A DNA stretch of 64,000 nucleotides from Shigella phage ESh22, in sequence record ON528732; one strand, 5' to 3'. The number at the start of each line of letters is the position of its first letter. The stretch's first letter is position 1. The notes beneath the pieces are model-generated. The model saw nothing but the letters and a program-made list of their open reading frames with translations, was not told the DNA's origin and searched no databases. Below, one piece after another: positions 1,715 to 24,506 of this stretch. The translations under genes were made by a program, and so were the position numbers.

Positions 1715-2410
1715 TCAGTTTTTAACTAACATTGTTTTAATGTGTGGAAGGATTCTTTCGACCTTTGCCACGTTCTTTACTGTATCTTCTATAAAGCATA
1801 CTACATCATAGTAAGGTAGAATGCAAGACTGAAGCATACGAACTTTCAAACTTTCTGCACTAATCTCATTGTCACCGAATCCACGCATAAATAGTAGGAA
1901 GTCACTGTCTGTGTTCTCATTCAGGAAGAGATGTGTAACCACTCTTTGTGATTCACCACGAGCAGTTAAGAATCCTATATCAGCATTCTGTGAGATTCCA
2001 CATAGGATGTTAAAAACATAAGTTGGTTTAGCCCTGTGAGAGTCTACCAAGTTTGTGTACTGTGAGTAAGTACCATCATCTAACAAGGTTGCATTAAGAC
2101 TTTTGTCAAAGCTTGTAAGAACTCCGTCAATATCTGCCAGAACCATTTTACGTTTTGCTTCTAAGTCTTTTGCAACTAAGATGAGGCTGTTACGATTTAC
2201 ATACACAGTCTTACCAGTTAGCAAATCTTGACAAGGAATCTTTGTCATCGTTGAGTGAAAATCTTCAAAACGACACACAACATATCTTGCTGTATCTGCA
2301 AAGTCAGCTTTAACAGTTTCTGACCAGCTTGCAGAACTGATATCTAAATCCAAAGGTTTGATATCATAAGCATGACACAGCACCTTATCAAATTGTTTTG
2401 ATTCGCTCAT
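1715..2410 (-). CDS. HAD-superfamily-like hydrolase (possible nucleotidase/phosphatase)
   Basis: 231 aa; 'VLADIDGVLT' resembles HAD motif I (DxDG[TV]); assignment by motif only. Confidence 0.4.
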   Translation of the reverse strand: MSESKQFDKVLCHAYDIKPLDLDISSASWSETVKADFADTARYVVCRFEDFHSTMTKIPCQDLLTGKTVYVNRNSLILVAKDLEAKRKMVLADIDGVLTSFDKSLNATLLDDGTYSQYTNLVDSHRAKPTYVFNILCGISQNADIGFLTARGESQRVVTHLFLNENTDSDFLLFMRGFGDNEISAESLKVRMLQSCILPYYDVVCFIEDTVKNVAKVERILPHIKTMLVKN

Positions 2411-2936
2411 ATTTTACCTTTTTAATGTTTGTTGCAAACTCACATTGAGCAAGCAGTTGCATGTTATTGTACACGTCTTGAGAGTATTGTCTAGCCTTTG
2501 GAATCTTATATTTGTAACCAGCATTATAAGATGCTAAGACACGCTTCATAGAATACTTTCCATTTGGGTGACCATGTACATTTGTCCAGAAAAGAAGTTC
2601 CTTGTGAGCCTCTTTAGCTGAGTAATGGAAATCACTGATAAGCTTTCTCTTTGCAACGTTAGGTGAAATCTTGTTACGCTTTACAACAGTCTTCAAATGA
2701 TTCTGGAACACTCCATAATCGTGAGTCTTTTTATTAACAACCTTGACACCTAATTGTGACTCTTGTAAGGCTATAGCTGCTAATGGGATTCCCCAACCTT
2801 GTCCCATCTCTTTCTCGCCATAATTGTAAGCCTTTAACATGTTAACTTTCTGGCTAATTGTTAGTTCTGGACAATCTGACGCTGTAGCAACCTGTGCTGT
2901 TAATAATAAGCACAAACCTAAAATGAATTTCTTCAT
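2388..2936 (-). CDS. endolysin, lytic transglycosylase-like (SLT domain) with N-terminal signal peptide
   Basis: ORF 2388..2960, start trimmed to the ATG (MKKFILGLCLLLTAQVATA) that follows an AGGAGA RBS; 'AIALQESQLG' (catalytic Glu-Ser), 'YGVFQ' and 'SYNAGY' resemble SLT signatures; sits in the lysis cassette with the spanins. Confidence 0.6.
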   Translation of the reverse strand: MKKFILGLCLLLTAQVATASDCPELTISQKVNMLKAYNYGEKEMGQGWGIPLAAIALQESQLGVKVVNKKTHDYGVFQNHLKTVVKRNKISPNVAKRKLISDFHYSAKEAHKELLFWTNVHGHPNGKYSMKRVLASYNAGYKYKIPKARQYSQDVYNNMQLLAQCEFATNIKKVKYERIKTI

Positions 2937-2967
2937 TGGGTCTCCTATTTTGTTAAACATGCAGACA

Positions 2968-2995
2968 ATTATACACCATCCTGCACATTTTTCAA
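2968..2995 (-). promoter_or_regulatory. sigma70-like promoter (-35 TTGAAA, 16-nt spacer, -10 TATAAT) upstream of the endolysin
   Basis: Minus-strand reading of 2968-2995 gives TTGAAA-N16-TATAAT; lies between the terminator at 2997-3021 and the endolysin RBS. Confidence 0.5.
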
Positions 2996-2996
2996 A

Positions 2997-3021
2997 TAAA
3001 AAAGGCTGCCGAAGCAGCCCT
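2997..3021 (-). terminator. intrinsic terminator (GGCTGC-TTCG-GCAGCC + U6) after rIIB
   Basis: GC stem, UUCG loop, U-tract on minus strand immediately 3' of the ORF ending at 3038. Confidence 0.6.
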
Positions 3022-3037
3022 TTAGGATTCTTACTAA

Positions 3038-4147
3038 TTAAACTTCACGTTTACGCTGAGAAATCAGTTCACCAGCAGTACCTACAACTACGTGTAGTGC
3101 TTCTGAACCATCCCACTCTTTAACAACTTCACGACGGCCATTCACGATTGCTGCTACTTCATAACGGGAAGCTCGCATTTTCATATCTTGGTAATCAGTT
3201 GGTACTGATACAACATCTCGTGGGTGTACACGAACTTTCAGGATGGTATCTCCAGAGAAGCTTGTTACATAATCCCAAGCACCAACATGAAGACCCTGAG
3301 AGCAAGTTACGTTACGGTTATTATCAACCATCCAACGTGGCATCTCTACAATGTTACCCAAATCATTAGGAACCTTGCAAGTACGAGAGTCAAACAGTTT
3401 ACCACCACGGCTAGTTACTTTCTTCCAACCAATAATGTAACCTTCTTCGTCAATCTCAACGTCAAGATGTGATACGAATCCCCAAAGTTGTTCTACAGAA
3501 TCTTTGGATGGGTTCTCCATCAGCTTCTCGAAGAACGCTAATAGATGGGTAAATCCTTCATCACCATTCTTCATCATGGTCAGGATACGGTCTACCAGAG
3601 TTGAACGCATCTGAACAGCACCGTAGTACAGGTTATCACCCTTGATAGTGATAGCACCCTGAGTGAAGTTCTCAATAGACTTACGGATATTCATAAGGTC
3701 AAATGCTTTCTTGTACTCACCTGAAACGACTGCTACTTTGATTTCTGCAAAGTTTGGATGAGTTGATTCAACAATCTCAGACTCTGCACCGAAAGTCATG
3801 ATAACAGAATCACCAGTAATCATGTACTCAATCTTGCTGTTACTTTGCATTGCATCATGTAGAGCATTTACTGGTTCGGCTTTGACTTCTTCTTTCTTAA
3901 CAGCTTTTACAACAGTAGTCTTGGAAGTTGCTTTCTTAGAAGTCTTAGCAGCTTTTGCAATAGACTTCAGAGTTTTGGCTAGTTTAGCTGGAGCCTTATC
4001 CAGAGTTGCTTGGTGACGTTCTACAGCACGACCAACAGAACGAGTTGAAGTTTTGTAACGATTTGCAATGGCAGTCTTGGTCAGTTTACCTTCCATTACC
4101 AGTGCATAGATTTCTGCGTCGATTTGTGCTTTAGTTTTAGTAGTCAT
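3038..4147 (-). CDS. rIIB: rIIB-like protein
   Basis: 369 aa, directly downstream of rIIA on the same strand (conserved rIIA-rIIB order); Lys/Ala-rich basic region; assignment mainly by synteny. Confidence 0.5.
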   Translation of the reverse strand: MTTKTKAQIDAEIYALVMEGKLTKTAIANRYKTSTRSVGRAVERHQATLDKAPAKLAKTLKSIAKAAKTSKKATSKTTVVKAVKKEEVKAEPVNALHDAMQSNSKIEYMITGDSVIMTFGAESEIVESTHPNFAEIKVAVVSGEYKKAFDLMNIRKSIENFTQGAITIKGDNLYYGAVQMRSTLVDRILTMMKNGDEGFTHLLAFFEKLMENPSKDSVEQLWGFVSHLDVEIDEEGYIIGWKKVTSRGGKLFDSRTCKVPNDLGNIVEMPRWMVDNNRNVTCSQGLHVGAWDYVTSFSGDTILKVRVHPRDVVSVPTDYQDMKMRASRYEVAAIVNGRREVVKEWDGSEALHVVVGTAGELISQRKREV

Positions 4148-4182
4148 CTTAATATCTCTCTTTAGTTAATTAACAGTTTCGT

Positions 4183-4211
4183 ATTCTAAGGGGCTTTTCA
4201 GCCCCTGTCAA
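4183..4211 (-). promoter_or_regulatory. promoter-like element with hairpin spacer: TTGACA-GGGGCUGAAAAGCCCC-TTAGAAT
   Basis: Minus-strand reading: consensus -35 TTGACA, 17-nt spacer made entirely of a GGGGCUG/CAGCCCC hairpin, -10-like TAGAAT; in the rIIA-rIIB intergenic gap about 30 nt upstream of the rIIB start. Confidence 0.45.
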
Positions 4212-4217
4212 ACTCTT

Positions 4218-6587
4218 TTAAGACCAAGAATTAGTATCTTCTGGGATGTGCTTAACATCAAACCCTAAGAACTTACCAACCTCAACAGGTGATACTTTAT
4301 TCCAGTCTAAGTTAGAAAGCAAGAAGTTTTCTGTGCGACGATGCTCAAAATACTTCTCAATTTTCCTTTTAAGACGGCTCTTAGCTTTGTCAAGAGACTG
4401 TCTCATCTTAGTCTTAGGCCGCATTGCTTTACGTAAGGACTCCAGAACACTGCTAGTACCCTCATAAGCAATAGTCCCAGCAGAGTAAGCCAAACGTCCA
4501 AACATTGCTTCTACAGCGTCTTCGTTACCTTCTAAGAACATCGTAAATTTGATATCCTTGGAGTAAACATAACCTTTAGACTTCTTCTTATTATTAAACG
4601 TAAATTCACGAGAAATAATATGTTTATCAGTCAGGTCACACTTATTTGCAGCCCACTGGTAAATCATGTGACGATGGTAATCTACCCAATGAGAACTGTC
4701 AACATAATCTTTGAAGACTTGTTCAGTTACTTCAATCCAGTCTTCCGGTACTTTCTTCCAGTTTGCTTTACGGAAGACATACACAGACTGCCCAGTTAAC
4801 TCTGTCACGAGTTTAGCAGCAGTCTCTGGAGAACATGAGAACAAGCCACCAATTACTTCATCACTTTGTGCTTTGATGTAAAGTTGTGGTTCTTCAATCT
4901 CATCAAAGTTCTCTTTAACTTCTGAGTAACCTACTTGGTCATCATTGAAGACAAAAGCTTTGTAGAGTTTAACAACTCCACGAGTAATTGTACGTTTCTC
5001 GTAATGGTGCTCTTTAGATGACATATTGTGAACACTTAGCAGACTCTTATCAAGCATGTGTAGCGTTACAAACGCATCAAATTGTTCCTGACTGTTAAAC
5101 AGGAATGCAATACCATTGTAGCGACGGAAGTTTGACTCTTCTTGTTCACGGTCACGGCAAGCACCACGAATAATCTGATTCTTACCAGTTGTCTTTTCAG
5201 TACCATTCTTGTTTCGACGGTCATTGATAAGGAACAGGTAATTGCTCAACTTATCTTTACTCATTGCACCGAAGATACTAAACATTGCAGAGTCTTGTGT
5301 ATGCGTGGCTGAAGTTGCACGAATACGATTCTCAAGACTGCTGTATTTGTAGTATGCAACAGGTTCATACAAGTTACCGATATTAGGAACCTGATTACCA
5401 TCTTTGTCAAGACGGAAGTTACCATTCTCATCTTTTAAGAAGGATGGTGAACCATCAGTCTCAGCCAATTGACCACGGCGAATACCCAAAAGTTTACGTT
5501 CAAGGTCTGCTAAGTTCTGACCTTGCCACTCTAACTTATCATTAACGTGATAGAATATTTCACGAGCATTCTTCCTCATATCATCATAAGCTTGTGCAGC
5601 GTCAATCAACGTGGGTTTGTCTGCAACCTCTTTAATAACATCCTCAACAATAGTTGAAGTAATCTTTTTAACTGCTTCAACAATTTTGTTTTTGGTAGTG
5701 TCGTTCATCTGCAATGCTTCACGAGATGCAGCAATAGCCACTGAACCAATCGGCATGTAGATGTTTACAAGGTCTACAGAACTACGGAAGAACTGAGGCA
5801 GAACCGTTGTAAATTCTGAACCAAGTAATTCACCCATTTCAACAGGGTATGCAATATTCCCCATTACAACGTTGAAGTGAACACTGTTATTGTTTGAGCG
5901 CCAACCCTCTTTGTATTTCATTGCATCATAAACACCATCTTCACGAGAGATTGAAGTCATTGCTGCAAGAATATCGAAGAACTCAATGTTGCAATCTGGT
6001 TTAACTTTAAAGTATGAGAATACATTACTTGCTTCTTCTTGGAACTTAGAAATGCGACTCTCAGAGACTGCTACTCGAACTGCTAAACCATTTGGTTCAG
6101 TTGTTGGGTTAGTAGTCAGTTTAGTAACTTGAGGAATACCATTCTCAAGATATACAGAGTACTTGTTAACAACACCATCAACGTAGCTTGATACAGTGAA
6201 TGATTGAGCAATTGCAAACGGTGACTTTGAACCGATACCCATAGCACCGATGTAGTCATTTGAGTCATTCTTTGTTGACTCTCCGTAGGTCATGTAAAGT
6301 TTCATTACTTTATCATGGGTCAATCCAGTACCAAAGTCTCGAACTTCAAAGTACGGCTCAAAACGAGTTGGTAAGTGAACCAAGAAAGGTTTATCACTAT
6401 TACCTGAATCAATGTGAGCATCTACTGCGTTACAGGATAACTCACGAATTACAGCACGTTCTTTGTAGGTGTATACACCAGAACTCAGAAGACTAAACAT
6501 TTCAGGTGTCATCTTAATCTGAGCTTGAGAAGTTTCTAAAGTGTCTGAACTTTTGATAATCTCTGCGTGGTCATTTACCATACGCAT
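4218..6587 (-). CDS. rIIA: rIIA protein (GHKL/histidine-kinase-like ATPase N-terminal domain)
   Basis: 789 aa; 'IRELSCNAVDAH' (N-box), 'RDFGTGL' (G1 box) and 'GAMGIGSKSPF' (G2 box) match the ATPase motifs recalled for T4 rIIA; followed by an rIIB-like gene. Confidence 0.8.
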   Translation of the reverse strand: MRMVNDHAEIIKSSDTLETSQAQIKMTPEMFSLLSSGVYTYKERAVIRELSCNAVDAHIDSGNSDKPFLVHLPTRFEPYFEVRDFGTGLTHDKVMKLYMTYGESTKNDSNDYIGAMGIGSKSPFAIAQSFTVSSYVDGVVNKYSVYLENGIPQVTKLTTNPTTEPNGLAVRVAVSESRISKFQEEASNVFSYFKVKPDCNIEFFDILAAMTSISREDGVYDAMKYKEGWRSNNNSVHFNVVMGNIAYPVEMGELLGSEFTTVLPQFFRSSVDLVNIYMPIGSVAIAASREALQMNDTTKNKIVEAVKKITSTIVEDVIKEVADKPTLIDAAQAYDDMRKNAREIFYHVNDKLEWQGQNLADLERKLLGIRRGQLAETDGSPSFLKDENGNFRLDKDGNQVPNIGNLYEPVAYYKYSSLENRIRATSATHTQDSAMFSIFGAMSKDKLSNYLFLINDRRNKNGTEKTTGKNQIIRGACRDREQEESNFRRYNGIAFLFNSQEQFDAFVTLHMLDKSLLSVHNMSSKEHHYEKRTITRGVVKLYKAFVFNDDQVGYSEVKENFDEIEEPQLYIKAQSDEVIGGLFSCSPETAAKLVTELTGQSVYVFRKANWKKVPEDWIEVTEQVFKDYVDSSHWVDYHRHMIYQWAANKCDLTDKHIISREFTFNNKKKSKGYVYSKDIKFTMFLEGNEDAVEAMFGRLAYSAGTIAYEGTSSVLESLRKAMRPKTKMRQSLDKAKSRLKRKIEKYFEHRRTENFLLSNLDWNKVSPVEVGKFLGFDVKHIPEDTNSWS

Positions 6588-7164: not shown

Positions 7165-7187
7165 AAAAAGGCTCCCGTAGGAGCCTC
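7165..7187 (-). terminator. intrinsic terminator (GGCTCC-UACG-GGAGCC + U5); element about 45 nt long, near-identical to the one at 1205-1229
   Basis: Hairpin + U-tract on minus strand after the NAMPT-like gene; flanks (TATTATAAG ... AATTTCTGGAGAA-ATG) conserved with the 1205 copy. Confidence 0.6.
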
Positions 7188-7200
7188 TTATAATACTCAG

Positions 7201-9027
7201 TTAGAGTTGTTTGTCAATGTTATTTCGAACATCACGAAGGTTTACATAACCATATGGTTGAGAGTTGCTAAACACCAACTTCAAAGCACATTCTGGATTA
7301 TCCAGTACACCTTCAAACTCTGCAAAGCCAAAGCCGTCTACAGCTTCCAGTTTATCACCGTCACACATAGGAACTACACCACCAAAAGCAGACTTCTTAA
7401 GACCACTGTCAGTTTTAGGGTCTTTTGCCAGCATGATTTCTTCACCGTCCATCTGAGCAAGAGTAGCCTTGACAGCAAATGCAAAGGTATCACGAGTCAG
7501 GTACTGGTAAGTGTATGAACCAACACCAAAGACCACGTTAGAGCTTGCAAAACCTTTGTCAGCAAGACGACCAAGAATCTCATTAGCTCGCTCAAGGGTG
7601 ATAGAATCACCATAGATTAAACCGATGTGCTCATCCAGTACTTTGTAACCTTTACTGTTCACACGACCACCAAAGATGTTGTAGAGAGTTGGGATAGCCC
7701 CATCAATCTCTGCTGTCAGCATACGCTTAACAACAATATTTCCGGTCTTATTAAAATCTTTCAAGTTAACTGTTTCAGCAGTTTCAAAATCTTCTTTATC
7801 AACAACTAACTCATAACCTTCAGAGATAAGCCATGCAGCAAACCCATAACCCATATCCTGCAACTCACAATACTGAATAAGATTCAGGAGTTTATCATTG
7901 TTCGGTGCAATTTCTTTCATATGTTTGTAGAACATACTCTTGGCATTTTCCCACTCAACAGCACGATAACCAGCAACAATGTGAATGGGGTCTCCAGAGT
8001 CTGGACGTATTACCAGTTTACCTTCACGCTTCAGGATAACTTCACGGAGTTCTGGGAGAATCTCTGTAACAGTACGCCAGAAGTTGTAAGTATCTGAAAC
8101 AACACTTGCAATACCAGTTGGATATACGTCTACCAGTAAATGCTCAAAGGTTTTAACCTCACCACGCCAACGTTTTGCATCCAGCAAGCTATCAGACTGC
8201 ATGATGTACTGTGAATGAATATCTTCCTCTGACAAGTCTTTCATATTCCATGAAATGTTTGCGCACATCACAGAGTGTTCAGTAGCTGGTACAGAGTTGC
8301 CGATATCACTTACTTCCATAAACTGACCATAAGCACGTTTAGCAGTGTAGACAGCAGGGAAGCTGTCAGTACCTTTAAAGCTTGTCAGGTGACCTACAGC
8401 GTTAAAAGCATCATCTGTAAAGCCTGACATACCACGCATTGCAAAATCATGACACTGCCAAGGTAAATGGAAGTCATTATCACAGGTTACATCAGCCCAT
8501 TGCTTACAGATGCGTTTGTAGTGTAATGCAATAGTGGCAATCGTAGAAGCTTTCCAAATTTCAGCAGAGAAAGCATCTTCCAGATATCCAGCTACCCAAT
8601 GGAAGCCCTCTACAGTATTCTTGAAGATAATCATTGGAACACGCATTGGAACCACTGTACCCTCTTCTACAGAGTAGACTTCGACTGGCAGATAGCCTAA
8701 ATCGTGAAGTTCTTCCCAATGCTCACGACCAATCGCATCTGCACCGAGAACACCGTTCATGATTTCTAAGATTTCGTCAACAACTTCTTTCTTATCTCGT
8801 TCAAAGAAGGTAGCATTCCAGTGGTCTACTAAGTAATCTTTAACGAAACGTTGAATACCAAAAGCAACTACACCGTCAATATCAAGTGGAGTGTTAAACC
8901 ACTTATCACCACGAGGTGTAAGATTTAGCATCAGATACTGTGTAGCACTTGGGTACTGGTAGATATGGCCAGCTTTGTAAGCATCCGCATTAAGACCTGC
9001 TGGTACTGCATAAACTGATTTAGACAT
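7201..9027 (-). CDS. nicotinamide phosphoribosyltransferase (NAMPT/NadV)-family protein; possibly a nicotinamide ADP-ribose transferase
   Basis: ORF 7201..9069, start trimmed to the ATG at 9027 (MSKSVYAVPAGLNADAYKAGH...) preceded by a GAGAGAGA RBS; about 609 aa, longer than typical NAMPT; family assigned from N-terminal region and overall pattern recalled for NadV/PncB-like proteins. Confidence 0.7.
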   Translation of the reverse strand: MSKSVYAVPAGLNADAYKAGHIYQYPSATQYLMLNLTPRGDKWFNTPLDIDGVVAFGIQRFVKDYLVDHWNATFFERDKKEVVDEILEIMNGVLGADAIGREHWEELHDLGYLPVEVYSVEEGTVVPMRVPMIIFKNTVEGFHWVAGYLEDAFSAEIWKASTIATIALHYKRICKQWADVTCDNDFHLPWQCHDFAMRGMSGFTDDAFNAVGHLTSFKGTDSFPAVYTAKRAYGQFMEVSDIGNSVPATEHSVMCANISWNMKDLSEEDIHSQYIMQSDSLLDAKRWRGEVKTFEHLLVDVYPTGIASVVSDTYNFWRTVTEILPELREVILKREGKLVIRPDSGDPIHIVAGYRAVEWENAKSMFYKHMKEIAPNNDKLLNLIQYCELQDMGYGFAAWLISEGYELVVDKEDFETAETVNLKDFNKTGNIVVKRMLTAEIDGAIPTLYNIFGGRVNSKGYKVLDEHIGLIYGDSITLERANEILGRLADKGFASSNVVFGVGSYTYQYLTRDTFAFAVKATLAQMDGEEIMLAKDPKTDSGLKKSAFGGVVPMCDGDKLEAVDGFGFAEFEGVLDNPECALKLVFSNSQPYGYVNLRDVRNNIDKQL

Positions 9028-9042
9028 AATTTTATCTCTCTC

Positions 9043-9070
9043 AATAGTGGGGCTTTTCAGCCCCTTCAAA
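9043..9070 (-). promoter_or_regulatory. GGGGCUGAAAAGCCCC hairpin element (identical to the core at 4190-4205), no U-tract
   Basis: Exact 16-nt repeat of the hairpin in the rIIB promoter-like element; sits between the Prs-like gene stop and the NAMPT-like gene start. Confidence 0.4.
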
Positions 9071-9075
9071 GTTTA

Positions 9076-9957
9076 TTACTCAATGTTTGCTACAGTTACT
9101 TGTGAGAACTGATTCAGACCACGGTCTTCAGCATCCCCTAGCGAGTTTGTAGTGTAGATATGGTCAATGCCATTGTCAAGAAGATTTTCAACACCTTTTG
9201 AGAAAATCCCATGAGTTACATAAAGTTCTACACGGCTTGCACCAGCTTCACGAAGATGTTTTGCAGCTTCTACAAAGGTACGACCACCATCACAGATATC
9301 ATCGAGAATCATGACAGCTTTACCAGTTAAGTCTACATCATCAAGGATTCGCATACCAGTGATTTCACCAGTTTTCAGATTACGAATCTTAGCCATTGTG
9401 ATATATGGCTTATCAACCTCTTTAGCAGCCTCTTCAGTCTTCTTGGCTGCACCTGCATCTGGAGCCACTAAGAAATCAATACGTGGGTCACTTGCAAAGT
9501 GTACTGCTGCTTCTTTCTGGGGCAGGTTATGGAAGCACTTAAACAAGTTCTCTGCTACGTTGCTGTGAGTATCTAAAGCACATACTGCATCAAACTCCAT
9601 AGCATTTACCAGATTTGCAAAGACTTTCAATGCTGCTGCATCACCTTTAAACATGTGACGGTCATAACGAGCATTTGGTAAGAAGCCAAATACAGCAGTC
9701 TTCATAGTTGATTTCTGAGGAATTAGTTTGTCAATAGCTTCTTTCGCCAGAGCTAAAGCAAACAGAGTATCTTTGTCGTAACCCTGTACAGTGAGGATTA
9801 CATTCTCAATCTGGGAAGCATTCTGTTCAGCATAGGCTACTAGGTCTTCTGAGAAGTTACCACCAATTTCTCCAGACGGAAACTGGATAATGTTGAACTC
9901 TTCTTGGTGAGCACCTTTTTTACGTGAGTGTAACAGTACACTAATAATAGTTTTCAT
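9076..9957 (-). CDS. ribose-phosphate pyrophosphokinase (Prs)-family protein; PRPP synthetase or ADP-ribose pyrophosphate synthetase-like
   Basis: 293 aa; 'FPSGE', 'FGFLPNARYDR', 'LDTHS' and the PRPP-binding loop 'VMILDDICDGGRTF' follow the Prs pattern; immediately upstream of the NAMPT-like gene. Confidence 0.75.
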   Translation of the reverse strand: MKTIISVLLHSRKKGAHQEEFNIIQFPSGEIGGNFSEDLVAYAEQNASQIENVILTVQGYDKDTLFALALAKEAIDKLIPQKSTMKTAVFGFLPNARYDRHMFKGDAAALKVFANLVNAMEFDAVCALDTHSNVAENLFKCFHNLPQKEAAVHFASDPRIDFLVAPDAGAAKKTEEAAKEVDKPYITMAKIRNLKTGEITGMRILDDVDLTGKAVMILDDICDGGRTFVEAAKHLREAGASRVELYVTHGIFSKGVENLLDNGIDHIYTTNSLGDAEDRGLNQFSQVTVANIE

Positions 9958-9969
9958 ATTTAATATCTC

Positions 9970-10263
9970 TCAATCAAAAGTTACAAAGGTTACAGCCATA
10001 GCTGTTTTGCATTTCTTTGGGTCTACAGTATGATAAATCACTAAACAGTTACCTGTACCGTCTGGAACTGGTTTTGTCCAAGTGCGTTCAATGTTTGGCT
10101 CTCCAAACTCTTTGTAGTAGCCATTAGATTGATGGTCTACCATCTCAAGTGCAAGGGCATCTGGAACGTGACCACGTATCATGTACATTTCACAACCGTT
10201 ACCACCTTCACTAATAAGTTCTTTGATTTCCCATTGTTCTCTAGCCATTATAAGTCGCCTCAT
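9970..10263 (-). CDS. hypothetical protein (97 aa)
   Basis: ORF track; same strand and operon context. Confidence 0.45.
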   Translation of the reverse strand: MRRLIMAREQWEIKELISEGGNGCEMYMIRGHVPDALALEMVDHQSNGYYKEFGEPNIERTWTKPVPDGTGNCLVIYHTVDPKKCKTAMAVTFVTFD

Positions 10264-10756
10264 AAACAGTCTCGAACTTCAACAAGAGAGATATTGCCAG
10301 AACTGCATATTCCTTGTCAAGCATTGGTGGCATATTATTTTTAATATATTCTTTTTGTTCTGCATAGGTCATCTTAGGGGCTTCTAGAAGCTTCTCTCCT
10401 TGCTTCTGGTTATCAAGTTGAGTCTGGATAAACCAGTTAGAGCAATGGTGCTCCCCACCCTTTGTAACGGGCTTATGGTGGCCTAATGTGAAAGATTGCT
10501 TACCAGAGTAACGGCAAAGCTTGTTAAGAGTAGCTATAGTGTTCTTTACAACACAGTACTCATAGAGGTTGTCAATAGTGTAGTGAGGGTAATATGCAAA
10601 GAGGGAACTATCACGGTACTTCCCACGATTCCAAAGAACCATGTGATTAGAGTTTGAAGGGTCATATTGGTGAGACTCAATGAACTCTTGACGCTCATCA
10701 AAATCAAGACGTAAAACAGACATTGCAGCAGCACGTTTAAGGTTTGCGTAGTACAT
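10241..10756 (-). CDS. hypothetical protein (171 aa), His-rich patches (GHHKP, GEHHCS)
   Basis: ORF track; no confident motif. Confidence 0.5.
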   Translation of the reverse strand: MYYANLKRAAAMSVLRLDFDERQEFIESHQYDPSNSNHMVLWNRGKYRDSSLFAYYPHYTIDNLYEYCVVKNTIATLNKLCRYSGKQSFTLGHHKPVTKGGEHHCSNWFIQTQLDNQKQGEKLLEAPKMTYAEQKEYIKNNMPPMLDKEYAVLAISLLLKFETVYEATYNG

Positions 10757-10768
10757 GATTTCTCCAAA

Positions 10769-10796
10769 ATAAAAAGGGAACCTTTTACAGTTCCCT
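10769..10796 (-). terminator. intrinsic terminator (GGGAAC-loop-GUUCCC + U5)
   Basis: Hairpin + U-tract on minus strand between ORF 10809..11120 and ORF 10241..10756. Confidence 0.55.
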
Positions 10797-10808
10797 AATC
10801 ATATACTT

Positions 10809-11120
10809 TTACTGTGTGACTTTCAACACTTTGAAGAAACCTTCTTCACCGATGTTGCTTGTAACGTAATCTGTAGGTTTGATTGAATGGTTCAGACATA
10901 CAATCTTCTTAGCTTTCTTGTCATAAGTCAGCTTAAGTTGTTTTACCTCTTTGTCACTAGCTAGTGACTCATTGTACATCTTTACAGCTTTCTTAAACGG
11001 GATATATTCACCACCAAAAGCTAGAAAACCTGTGCCACAATAATGTGCATTATATTTCTCAACCATAAATTGGCACAGAACTGCAATCTGAATCTTACGA
11101 GTGTTATAAATCTTTTCCAT
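10809..11120 (-). CDS. hypothetical protein (103 aa)
   Basis: ORF track. Confidence 0.45.
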   Translation of the reverse strand: MEKIYNTRKIQIAVLCQFMVEKYNAHYCGTGFLAFGGEYIPFKKAVKMYNESLASDKEVKQLKLTYDKKAKKIVCLNHSIKPTDYVTSNIGEEGFFKVLKVTQ

Positions 11121-21577: not shown

Positions 21578-22110
21578 TCATAAGTTTCTCCGTGATTTGC
21601 AAACTCTCTATGGAGTTCTTCTCTTTTCTTTCTAACAACATTTTCAGCCTCAGCTACAGAATCAAACAGTCCGAGGTGATAGCAAACTTTATTATGTTTA
21701 ACCTGCGCAACCCATCTGCATCTTTGCTTGTGGTAATAGACACCCTTCACACCAGACTTGTTGTCTTTCCTCTTAGTTGCGTTGCAGTTATTATCTGACC
21801 TGCTGCACTCTCTTAAATTGTCGAACCAGTTTTCGTGCCTAATACCGTTCTTATGGTCAACTAATTTAGGTAGGTAACCTTTTATGTATAAAAATGCTAA
21901 CCTGTGTGCTGCGTACCTTTTACCAAAAAGTTTTATATAAACATAGCCGCTATGGTGTTTAACTCCAGCTACAGAGCCAGCTTTAGCCTTACCAGTTCTA
22001 TCTACTAACCAAGTAAAGACCCCTGTTTCGGGGTCATAGTGTAGGTATTCTTTAAGAATCTGCTGAGTTAACATTTGGTGTCCACCCATACTTATCAAAA
22101 GTGAAATCAT
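21574..22110 (-). CDS. HNH homing endonuclease with AP2-type DNA-binding domain
   Basis: 178 aa; 'VDHKNGIRHENWFDNLR' HNH motif; 'GVKGVYYHKQRCRWVAQV...GLFDSVAEAE' AP2-like domain; ORF start overlaps the 3' end of the exonuclease gene, so the true start may be an internal ATG. Confidence 0.7.
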   Translation of the reverse strand: MISLLISMGGHQMLTQQILKEYLHYDPETGVFTWLVDRTGKAKAGSVAGVKHHSGYVYIKLFGKRYAAHRLAFLYIKGYLPKLVDHKNGIRHENWFDNLRECSRSDNNCNATKRKDNKSGVKGVYYHKQRCRWVAQVKHNKVCYHLGLFDSVAEAENVVRKKREELHREFANHGETYE

Positions 22111-23098
22111 CTTTCTTGTTTCTTTCCTGATAGGCTAAGAAGAAGTGTTGCTGCATTAACTCTAAAGGTGTTCTGGTAATTGTCTGGCCATCCCATGAAA
22201 CATAAGTATAAGAGTCTTTCTTAGCGTAGAGTTCGTAAATTGCATCAAGACATTCTTTATAAGTGGTTTTACCTTCAAGAGCTTTCATTACTGCAACTTT
22301 ACCAGCACCTTTTAAACCAAAGTAGTTATCTGCATTATCACCAGCGACAGCTTGGTAGCAGAGGAATTTAAATCCCACTCCGACCGCCTTCTTAGCTTTT
22401 GGTGTAGATTTTATTGGACAATCCCAAATCTCACCAACGTTATTATCAGCAATAAAAATCAATGGGTTTTTCTCATAAGTCATATCAATGCAATAAGTAC
22501 CTTCAGCTTGACGAAGGTCTTTGTCAATACTCATGAGGGCAGCTTTTTTACCCATCTTCTCAGCTTTCGCAATAACGATAGAGTCAGCTTCAAATCCATC
22601 AAGAATCAGCTTAAACTCAGGTCGTGACAGAAGATACTCACGACAAGCAACTAGGTGCGTAGGTGTCACCGCTTCTTTTCTGTTACCTTGATATTGGTGT
22701 TCAAGACCTTTGATATCCTTGTGTTTGTGAACACCTTTCTCAGTAAGGTAACCCATCCATTTTCGCTCTTTACCAACGACTTTCAACCACTCCTGAAGAA
22801 CCTGCTGAGTCGCCATAATAGCTTCTTTTTCACTCTTGGCTTCCTTCCAAGTCTGTCTTTCCCATTCATCTTCATCAAAGTCAAGTCCAAGTTCCTCTGT
22901 AAGAACTCTCTGGTCAGCTAACCATTGTGAAGATAACTTAGCACTATCAAAGTCATCAGACTCTTCAGCGGTAAGTTTATTCACATACTTGTACTTTGCT
23001 TTTTCAACTACACAAGCACCCTTGTAAGCAATGCTGTCTGCGTCAATGAAGACGTGTGTAACGCTTTCTGGGAGCTTTGTAAGTGTATACTGATTCAT
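22052..23098 (-). CDS. 5'-3' exonuclease / flap endonuclease (FEN/RNase H-like)
   Basis: 348 aa; N-terminal 'VFIDADSIAYKGA' acidic motif typical of FEN family; in the replication block. Confidence 0.5.
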   Translation of the reverse strand: MNQYTLTKLPESVTHVFIDADSIAYKGACVVEKAKYKYVNKLTAEESDDFDSAKLSSQWLADQRVLTEELGLDFDEDEWERQTWKEAKSEKEAIMATQQVLQEWLKVVGKERKWMGYLTEKGVHKHKDIKGLEHQYQGNRKEAVTPTHLVACREYLLSRPEFKLILDGFEADSIVIAKAEKMGKKAALMSIDKDLRQAEGTYCIDMTYEKNPLIFIADNNVGEIWDCPIKSTPKAKKAVGVGFKFLCYQAVAGDNADNYFGLKGAGKVAVMKALEGKTTYKECLDAIYELYAKKDSYTYVSWDGQTITRTPLELMQQHFFLAYQERNKKDDFTFDKYGWTPNVNSADS

Positions 23099-23111
23099 TG
23101 TACCTCCATAC

Positions 23112-23143
23112 GAAAAAGCCCTATACGTTCTGTACAGGGCTTT
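23112..23143 (-). terminator. intrinsic terminator (AGCCCU-loop-AGGGCU + U5)
   Basis: Hairpin + U-tract on minus strand between the SSB-like gene and the exonuclease gene. Confidence 0.5.
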
Positions 23144-23160
23144 GTAGTAACTACTGAGAA

Positions 23161-24006
23161 TTAATCTTCAGTATCGAAATCATCATCATCATCCGGTGTT
23201 GGTAGGTCGTCATCGTCATCACCACCTTTATCATCATCAGAATCTTTTGCATCTTCTTCAGAGATTTCACCGTTGTCTTCAACACCTGCGAGACCAAGCA
23301 GTGCCAGTTCGTCTTCATCAAGTTCAGTCTCGGTTGCACCACCAGTACCACCAGTGTATGGAACCAGAGTATCAATGATAAACTGCTCCTGAATTGGCTT
23401 AGTCAGAACGTTACCTTCGAAGGTGTAGAAGTGAGTCGAAAGAATCACACTACCAAAAGAACCATTACCGACTGCAATATCTGGACAGACAACATCGTAA
23501 GTCTTGTCATCGTCATGCTTGTCAGATTTTGCTGCCTTAATTTTCTTCATAGGTTGCTTAACCGCAACACGTTTACCGTTCAGTTCTTCAACCAGCATCA
23601 CAGGAAAACTCTGTTTTGCTGACCATACAGCACCATCTTTGTAAGCTGCTGAACGGCTAACCTTCAGGATGTAATAAGTGTCAGCTTCGAATGGAGGCTC
23701 ACAACCAAACTTCTCTTCAAAGTCATCTGCATCAACAGTCTCTGTAGTGACCTTATCCCAACCATCTGGATTTTTTTTAGACTTGGTGAACTCTTTAAAG
23801 AGCTTGTTACCGTCTTTTGCCAGAATTGAAACGCTGTAATTACAGTCTTTGCCTGGGAAATGTTTGTCTACAGACTTGCCCTTCTGAGGGCGTGGAATAG
23901 TATTCAGGTAGTAGAACCAAACATCTTTCAGCAGGTAACGATAAGTTTCAAGTTCTTTACCGTTGTATTTTTCTACCGGAGATTTCATTTTAACAACTTT
24001 AGACAT
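23161..24006 (-). CDS. candidate single-stranded DNA-binding protein with poly-acidic C-terminal tail
   Basis: 281 aa; C-terminus '...DDDKGGDDDDDLPTPDDDDDFDTED' resembles the acidic tails of T7 gp2.5/T4 gp32-type SSBs; in the replication block. Confidence 0.35.
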   Translation of the reverse strand: MSKVVKMKSPVEKYNGKELETYRYLLKDVWFYYLNTIPRPQKGKSVDKHFPGKDCNYSVSILAKDGNKLFKEFTKSKKNPDGWDKVTTETVDADDFEEKFGCEPPFEADTYYILKVSRSAAYKDGAVWSAKQSFPVMLVEELNGKRVAVKQPMKKIKAAKSDKHDDDKTYDVVCPDIAVGNGSFGSVILSTHFYTFEGNVLTKPIQEQFIIDTLVPYTGGTGGATETELDEDELALLGLAGVEDNGEISEEDAKDSDDDKGGDDDDDLPTPDDDDDFDTED

Positions 24007-24095
24007 TTTAATACCTCTTTCTCAAATTAACTATCAATTCAAATCTTATTGGGAGTACAATCTTACATGCTTCATACCCCCATGTCAAACATTTT

Positions 24096-24233
24096 AAGCA
24101 GCTTTCTTGGCAGCTTTACGAGCAGTCTTACCAGTGCGAACTCGCTTCGTTTCGTAATGTTCAGCAGACTTACCAGCAGTTGCTTTCAGGGAATCACCAA
24201 ATACTGCTTCAAATGCTTTAGAGTGTTTCATTT
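24096..24233 (-). CDS. small basic protein (45 aa)
   Basis: Hand-translated MKHSKAFEAVFGDSLKATAGKSAEHYETKRVRTGKTARKAAKKAA; its ATG overlaps the stop of the upstream ORF (ATGA). Confidence 0.3.
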
Positions 24234-24506
24234 TGTGCTCCGATATATTTCATATTCAAATGTTTTTAAAGTCAAGGTAAAAAGATAAATTGTTTCAGCT
24301 TTGTCAATTGACAGTGCAAACAAGTCTTTATCTTCACGGCTTTCATGTTCATAAGTAACATCATGCCCCTTGTTGATTAGTACTTTAGCGAACTCTTCAA
24401 TCTTAGTCAAGCAATCTTTTGCAAATTTTTTAGTGCTATTTTCTGAATAGAAGGGCGTGATGCCCTCCTTCAGATAACTATCAGTCAGTTTCAAACGGGC
24501 AGTCAT
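24228..24506 (-). CDS. hypothetical protein (about 92 aa)
   Basis: Downstream part of ORF-track 24228..24773; only the segment after the primase-helicase stop (24481) is likely coding; candidate ATGs at 24506/24509/24515. Confidence 0.35.
   Translation of the reverse strand: MTARLKLTDSYLKEGITPFYSENSTKKFAKDCLTKIEEFAKVLINKGHDVTYEHESREDKDLFALSIDKAETIYLFTLTLKTFEYEIYRSTK

Follow-up and report, generated by a model that had tools for sequence, protein, structure and literature searches.

Two adjoining minus-strand genes in a 64,000-nucleotide stretch of DNA from Shigella phage ESh22 (sequence record ON528732; the whole analysed stretch is called the window below) very probably encode nicotinamide adenine dinucleotide (NAD+) reconstitution pathway 1 (NARP1) of an Ounavirinae phage. 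The first gene, adps (9957..9076(-)), encodes a 293-residue Prs-family protein, the predicted ADP-ribose pyrophosphate synthetase, and the second, namat (9027..7201(-)), encodes a 608-residue NAMPT-family protein, the predicted nicotinamide ADP-ribose transferase. The pathway was first found in Escherichia phage Bas63, where genes 79-80 encode it (Osterman et al. 2024, bioRxiv 10.1101/2024.02.11.579819), and it is present in ~4% of sequenced phages. The system has been described before, and the tables of the NARP1 paper already contain exactly this pair of genes. The 293-residue sequence is identical to ON528731_00024 of Shigella phage ESh21, listed in Supplementary Table 1 of Osterman et al. 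with the entry "Namat within 10 genes: Yes", and the 608-residue sequence is identical to ON528731_00025 of the same phage, listed in Supplementary Table 2 as "Adps-associated". A first-pass annotation of the window had favored a counter-defence route from ADP-ribose through ADP-ribose pyrophosphate (ADPR-PP) to NAD+ over housekeeping salvage, and this reading is supported by the listing in the tables and by the orthology and synteny with Bas63 genes 79-80.

Over their full lengths, the adps product shares 82% identity with gp79 (Adps) of Bas63 (MZ501086), and the namat product shares 74% identity with gp80 (Namat) of that phage. The gene order nrdA/B/D/G, 77, 78, 79, 80, followed by rIIA and rIIB, is common to the window and Bas63. 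Both phages belong to the Ounavirinae, and the two NARP1 loci share their flanks, the SCH motif, an SCL of the type in which Lys is followed by Trp, both insertions within Namat, the intergenic hairpin, and the terminator. They differ in that Bas63 is a Felixounavirus, whereas the phage studied here is a Mooglevirus, and in that the first Namat insertion is 15 residues longer here.

The map of open reading frames (ORFs) and the Pfam matches agree with the earlier description of two adjacent minus-strand genes, of which the Prs-like one carries the motifs FPSGE, FGFLPNARYDR, and VMILDDICDGGRTF. The 293-residue protein matches Pribosyl_synth/Pribosyltran with an E-value of 1e-10, and the 608-residue protein matches NAPRTase and NAMPT_N with an E-value of 4e-29; both assignments are far beyond the range of chance. 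The length of 293 residues given in the first-pass annotation was correct, whereas its 609 residues for the NAMPT-like protein has to be corrected to 608, counted from the ATG that is also the start in GenBank. An in-frame TTG further upstream, at 9069, would extend the protein to 622 residues. The two genes are on the same strand and separated by a spacer of 48 nt, and the sole terminator is located 3' of namat; therefore, they are adjacent members of one operon.

Based on the published NARP1 enzymes, a mechanism for the pair can be proposed. A NADase defence such as SIR2-HerA, DSR, type I Thoeris, Kongming, or a SPARSA-type system would split NAD+ into ADP-ribose and nicotinamide. Adps would then use ATP to pyrophosphorylate ADP-ribose at its 1'' position, giving ADPR-PP, and Namat would replace the pyrophosphate of ADPR-PP with nicotinamide, so that NAD+ is formed directly. 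Rebuilding of NAD+ in this manner would need no nicotinamide mononucleotide (NMN) adenylyltransferase and would consume no phosphoribosyl pyrophosphate (PRPP). The two reactions were demonstrated with the enzymes of SpβL1, whose Adps converts ADP-ribose and ATP to ADPR-PP and whose Namat converts ADPR-PP and nicotinamide to NAD+ (Osterman et al. 2024), and enzymes of DyoEdafos and P. foliorum have likewise been shown to carry out this chemistry. Bas63 lacking genes 79-80 no longer overcomes SIR2-HerA (Osterman et al. 2024), and in an independent knockout screen the plating of Bas63 Δg79 or Δg80 on Sir2-HerA was down by 1e4-1e6. We infer the NARP1 function of the enzymes encoded in the window by orthology.

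The pair could also be read as housekeeping nicotinamide salvage, in which the Prs-like protein makes PRPP, the NAMPT-like protein makes NMN, and NadD or NadR of the host completes the synthesis, boosting the supply of NAD+ during infection. The generic family models for Prs and Nampt recognise the two proteins, the GenBank names agree with these activities, and Namat homologs can form NMN from PRPP in vitro. Nevertheless, we regard salvage as highly improbable. SpβL1 Adps gives no product with ribose-5-phosphate, and Namat offered PRPP and ADPR-PP together makes only NAD+; the preferred substrate is ADPR-PP, not PRPP (Osterman et al. 2024). Furthermore, SIR2-HerA cells infected with Bas63 build up ADPR-PP only if the phage has genes 79-80 (Osterman et al. 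2024). The sequences of the two window proteins speak against salvage as well, since the clamp motif specific to users of ADPR-PP is present in Namat, and Adps fails every equivalog Prs model.

The latter result comes from a comparison of the 293-residue protein with bona fide Prs by profile hidden Markov models (HMMs), which the first-pass annotation had proposed. The protein scored below the cutoff in all equivalog Prs models (for example, 105.9 against a cutoff of 296 for NF002095) and passed only the subfamily Prs model TIGR01251 (127.5 bits; cutoff, 113). Bacterial Prs has the same fold and the flexible-loop catalytic Lys, but housekeeping Prs scores far lower, with at most 68 bits for the Prs chains in the PDB. 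The 293-residue protein shares 32% identity with SpβL1 Adps, the enzyme tested biochemically, and BLASTP aligns its K190 with the essential K162 of that enzyme, which corresponds to K197 of B. subtilis Prs. A literature search found neither a published structure of an Adps nor a sequence signature by which Adps could be told from Prs. Therefore, the window protein is placed in the Adps clade on the basis of its orthology with Bas63 Adps, a seed of that clade, and of the published tree.

The corresponding comparison of the 608-residue protein with NAMPT and Namat, also suggested beforehand, identifies it as a Namat. Its best sequence matches in the PDB are 9W5W and 9W5X (E-value 6e-126), the crystal structures of SpβL1 Namat (PMC12774641), whereas the true Nampts of Xanthomonas, human, and mouse match with E-values of ~1e-38 to 1e-49. 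An AlphaFold2 model of the protein has a predicted local distance difference test score (pLDDT) of 92 and a predicted template modelling score of 0.90. Foldseek ranks 9W5X and 9W5W first for this model (E-value 1e-52, target TM-score 0.95), followed by Haemophilus NadV and mammalian NAMPT. The SCH selectivity-clamp motif of Namat is present as GSYTYQYLTRD at residues 503-513, with Y505 and Y509. In the SCL of Namat enzymes, the third residue is R, K, or Y; with K or Y at this position, it is the next residue that stacks on the adenine. The SCL of the window protein, G40-D41-K42-W43, is of the same type as S-D-K-W of Bas63, in which the residue after the Lys stacks.

The catalytic core of the window protein consists of F195, R198, D221, H251, R341, and D343, as determined from a HMMER alignment to 9W5X; the equivalents in SpβL1 Namat are F189, R192, D215, the catalytic His, R306, and D308. 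Besides these six residues, the mapped NAD+ contacts D15, Y17, A248, G473, D474, G503, S504, Y505, Y509, T511, R512, and D513 are kept. Conservative changes occur at two contact positions, where A196 replaces S190 and S475 replaces A362 (SpβL1 numbering second). The SpβL1 system is thus alike in being a two-gene pathway with the same catalytic core and adenine clamp, and it provides the best sequence and fold match in the PDB. However, the identity is only ~36% for Namat and 32% for Adps, the SpβL1 Namat has 491 residues and lacks the two insertions, and its SCL relies directly on Arg40, in contrast to the Lys42-Trp43 sequence found here.

The extra ~115 residues of the window Namat are accounted for by the two insertions, both outside the mapped ligand contacts. 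Insertion 1 (8161..8256(-), residues ~258-289) is a variable helical segment that follows the segment with the catalytic His; it has a pLDDT of 66-83 and is the one that is shorter in Bas63. Insertion 2 (7693..7962(-), residues ~356-445; ~355-442 in the comparison with SpβL1 Namat and NAMPT) is an additional α/β subdomain that neither of these two enzymes has. This subdomain of ~90 residues is confidently folded in the model, conserved, and without a structural relative in the PDB. The insertions occur only in the phage forms of 555-610 residues, among them those of the Ounavirinae and of related myoviruses that infect Yersinia, Pectobacterium, and Salmonella, and relatives of ~496 residues with the same clamp motif lack both. 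The first-pass annotation had taken the additional length of the NAMPT-like protein as a possible sign of altered substrate specificity. We rejected length as a determinant of specificity, because the 491-residue SpβL1 Namat, which has the length of human NAMPT, already prefers ADPR-PP; the insertions are not required for that specificity.

A NAMPT-family fold would also be expected of a NARP2-type system, in which a true Nampt acts together with a phage-encoded NMN adenylyltransferase (NMNAT), as in Vibrio phage KVP40. We searched for the second enzyme by a Pfam scan of all non-shadow ORFs of at least 140 residues in the window and in the 23 kb of the ESh21 genome outside the window, which produced complete lists of 24, 16, and 20 families. 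Within this scope, the CTP_transf_like/NMNAT family is absent from all three lists, and no Nudix family was found. The earlier statement that the window contains no NMNAT thus holds, and its extension to the rest of the genome, which the first-pass annotation had left to a later search, is also negative. NARP2 and the NadV-NadM salvage of KVP40 likewise employ a NAMPT-family enzyme that uses nicotinamide, but they require an NMNAT and PRPP, whereas the enzyme studied here has the Namat clamp and is catalogued as "Adps-associated", not "Nmnat-associated". The NARP2-type explanation is effectively refuted already, and we give it almost no weight.

Several points weigh against the assignment of the pair to NARP1. 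Curated HMMs name the two proteins ribose-phosphate diphosphokinase (TIGR01251) and nicotinate/nicotinamide phosphoribosyltransferase (NF006629, 461 against a cutoff of 405), so that sequence-family tools alone cannot separate Adps and Namat from Prs and Nampt. The activity of Namat on PRPP, mentioned above, is retained in vitro. The enzymology and genetics come from orthologs and homologs and would apply to ESh21 by analogy. The original authors were unable to purify a Bas63-type Adps (Osterman et al. 2024), and therefore the evidence for the chemistry consists of work on the SpβL1 enzyme, with 32% identity, and of metabolite data obtained in vivo.

NARP1 may have a broader role than the reversal of defences that produce ADP-ribose and nicotinamide. 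It could relieve other systems, for example the Ec86 retron and hhe, by way of adenine derived from NAD+, since Bas63 Δg79 and Δg80 are also less fit on hosts with the Ec86 retron or hhe. These effects are smaller, the study that reported them offers the mechanism as speculation, and the data, obtained with Bas63, would extend to ESh21 by analogy. NARP1 was ineffective against type II Thoeris, a defence without NAD+ depletion (Osterman et al. 2024). We consider the broader role possible, with the balance of the evidence leaning against it.

Some phages extend the two-enzyme core of NARP1. In NARP1-AP of Vibrio phage Gary, which has the order Adps-Adpp-Namat and counters aRES, Adpp is a macro-domain ADPR-1''-phosphate phosphatase (bioRxiv 10.64898/2026.01.28.702374), and other NARP1 phages add a RyR-domain glycosidase (RyDEP). 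The four ORFs flanking the operon in the window have no Macro or RyR Pfam match at E < 1, and neither kind of gene occurs within two genes of the operon. However, the ESh21 genome contains a macro-domain gene at ON528731.1 24371-25165 (+), on the same strand as the operon, ~7.7 kb downstream and ~14 genes away. It lies ~500 bp beyond position 1 of the window and therefore outside it. The protein has 264 residues, matches Pfam Macro above the threshold (29.9 bits; cutoff, 22), belongs to PHROG 335 ('phosphatase'), and is 66% identical to Bas63 gp95, which is annotated as "putative phosphatase". Its N-terminal 158 residues are homologous over the full length both to the Adpp of Gary, which is verified and Adps-linked (27% identity, E-value 2e-15), and to the macro protein of Pseudomonas phage PN09 (36% identity, E-value 9e-20). 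An additional region of ~105 residues forms its C-terminus. The best sequence match in the PDB is yeast Poa1p, an ADPR-1''-phosphatase.

The macro protein could dephosphorylate ADPR-1''-phosphate and so aid escape from aRES-type defence, which is a lead suggested by its homology, not a result. Alternatively, it may have a DarG-like, anti-DarT role. Its match to a DarG model was considered as an argument against the Adpp role and rejected, because the verified Adpp matches the DarG macro model too. The protein is not in the Adpp table of the NARP1-AP preprint (bioRxiv 10.64898/2026.01.28.702374). The locus of ESh21 thus resembles NARP1-AP in the kind of core enzymes and in the presence of an Adpp-homologous protein in the genome, but the macro gene is too distant from the operon, being further than two genes away, for the system to count as NARP1-AP. 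We speculate that NARP1 of the Ounavirinae exceeds the two-enzyme core, that the ~90-residue subdomain of Namat could serve to regulate this enzyme or as a docking site for Adps, and that the macro protein could be an unlinked counterpart of NARP1-AP; taken together, this is an unlikely combination.

The closest short-form relatives of the pair are found in the Klebsiella-type chromosome GCA_023685665.1 (examined locus 2211-5491) and its relatives, where nrtR is divergent from a prs-like and a nadV-like gene. The prs-like product has 289 residues and is 48% identical to the window Adps, and the nadV-like product has 496 residues, is 45% identical to Namat, and contains the Namat-type SCH motif GSFTYQYNTRD. 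These chromosomal pairs are similar to the NrtR-regulated prs-nadV operons, the control of which by NrtR, an ADP-ribose-sensing repressor, has been called puzzling and unexplained (Rodionov 2008, PMC2330246). The NrtR-linked enterobacterial operons may be bacterial NARP1 systems induced by their own substrate. A literature search found no paper that names NrtR and NARP1 together.

The pair itself brings no new biology, as NARP1 was published in 2024 and the pair is already tabulated. The practical value lies in annotation, since the GenBank labels "ribose-phosphate pyrophosphokinase" and "nicotinamide phosphoribosyltransferase" mask a counter-defence module. This module matters when Shigella and E. 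coli phages are selected for therapy and the target hosts carry SIR2, Thoeris, or DSR systems. The unlinked Adpp-like gene, the insertion subdomain of Namat, and the NrtR-linked bacterial operons resembling Adps/Namat are side leads that are modest but testable.

The terminator that the first-pass annotation had placed after the pair was confirmed as a strong intrinsic terminator at 7166..7189(-), where a T-run comes after a stem of 10 bp and the fold z-score is -4.85, and it is kept in Bas63. A promoter-like site at 7217-7190 (TTGACA-16-TATTAT) directly precedes it. Between the stop of adps and the start of namat there is a GC-rich hairpin, GGGGCU-GAAA-AGCCCC (9049..9064(-), RNA fold z-score -3.1), also kept in Bas63. 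It lacks a proper T-run and is probably a stabiliser or attenuator. The pair had also been described as having its own upstream hairpin. A promoter-like site with a hairpin and T-run does exist, but it is positioned two genes upstream, at 10775..10826(-), and none abuts the Prs-like gene, which is separated from the preceding ORF by a gap of 12 nt without a hairpin. The upstream element is kept in front of Bas63 gene 77 and probably starts the transcription unit containing adps and namat. The predicted transcription unit therefore comprises four genes, not two.

The unit is headed by a gene for a 171-residue protein (10241..10756(-)), an ortholog of Bas63 gp77 with 80% identity that belongs to PHROG 3500 (unknown function) and is not a NARP1 enzyme. 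It contains the HNH-like motif HHKPVTKGGEHHCSNWFIQTQLDNQKQG, has weak matches to PHROG HNH and IscB-HNH, and has no Pfam match. Bas63 gp77 was reported to counter the Ec67 retron and was described there as GIY-YIG. The second gene (9970..10248(-)) encodes a 92-residue ortholog of Bas63 gp78 with 70% identity, no Pfam match, and membership in PHROG 4726 (unknown function). Orthologs of rIIA and rIIB are located just downstream of the pair, at 4218-6587(-) and in the next downstream gene; their Bas63 counterparts, g84 and g85, were reported to counter QatABCD. With the gp77 and rIIA/rIIB orthologs nearby, the neighbourhood of NARP1 is rich in counter-defence genes.

Intergenic cassettes of one layout recur in the window at 13152-13117, 10796-10775, 7189-7166, 3023-3000, and 1229-1208, all on the minus strand. 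In each, the -10 box of a sigma-70-like promoter directly abuts a GC-rich tetraloop hairpin, and a T-run and GGAG come next. The cassettes are kept in Bas63 and bound small blocks of genes, the NARP1 block among them. They resemble the promoter-early-stem-loop cassettes of T4-type phages.

Megablast comparison showed that the region of the pair is 100% identical to that of ESh21 (ON528731.1; Ounavirinae, Mooglevirus), and ~210 further Ounavirinae records match it at 80-90%. A megablast search of all complete E. coli genomes with adps gave no match, and thus adps is not of recent host or prophage origin. The whole window is ~99.5% identical to ESh21 in a circularly permuted alignment. The only sizeable difference is located at 21583-22081, where ~500 nt have no counterpart, followed by 22082-24364 at 95% identity. 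The first third of the window contains matches to SegE-type GIY-YIG and HNH_3/AP2 endonucleases, and turnover of mobile endonucleases is the likely cause of the difference at 21583-24364. The early and middle genes at positions 1-28720 of the window include an ORF for a MazG-like PRA-PH (PF01503) nucleotide pyrophosphohydrolase and a deoxynucleotide monophosphate kinase.

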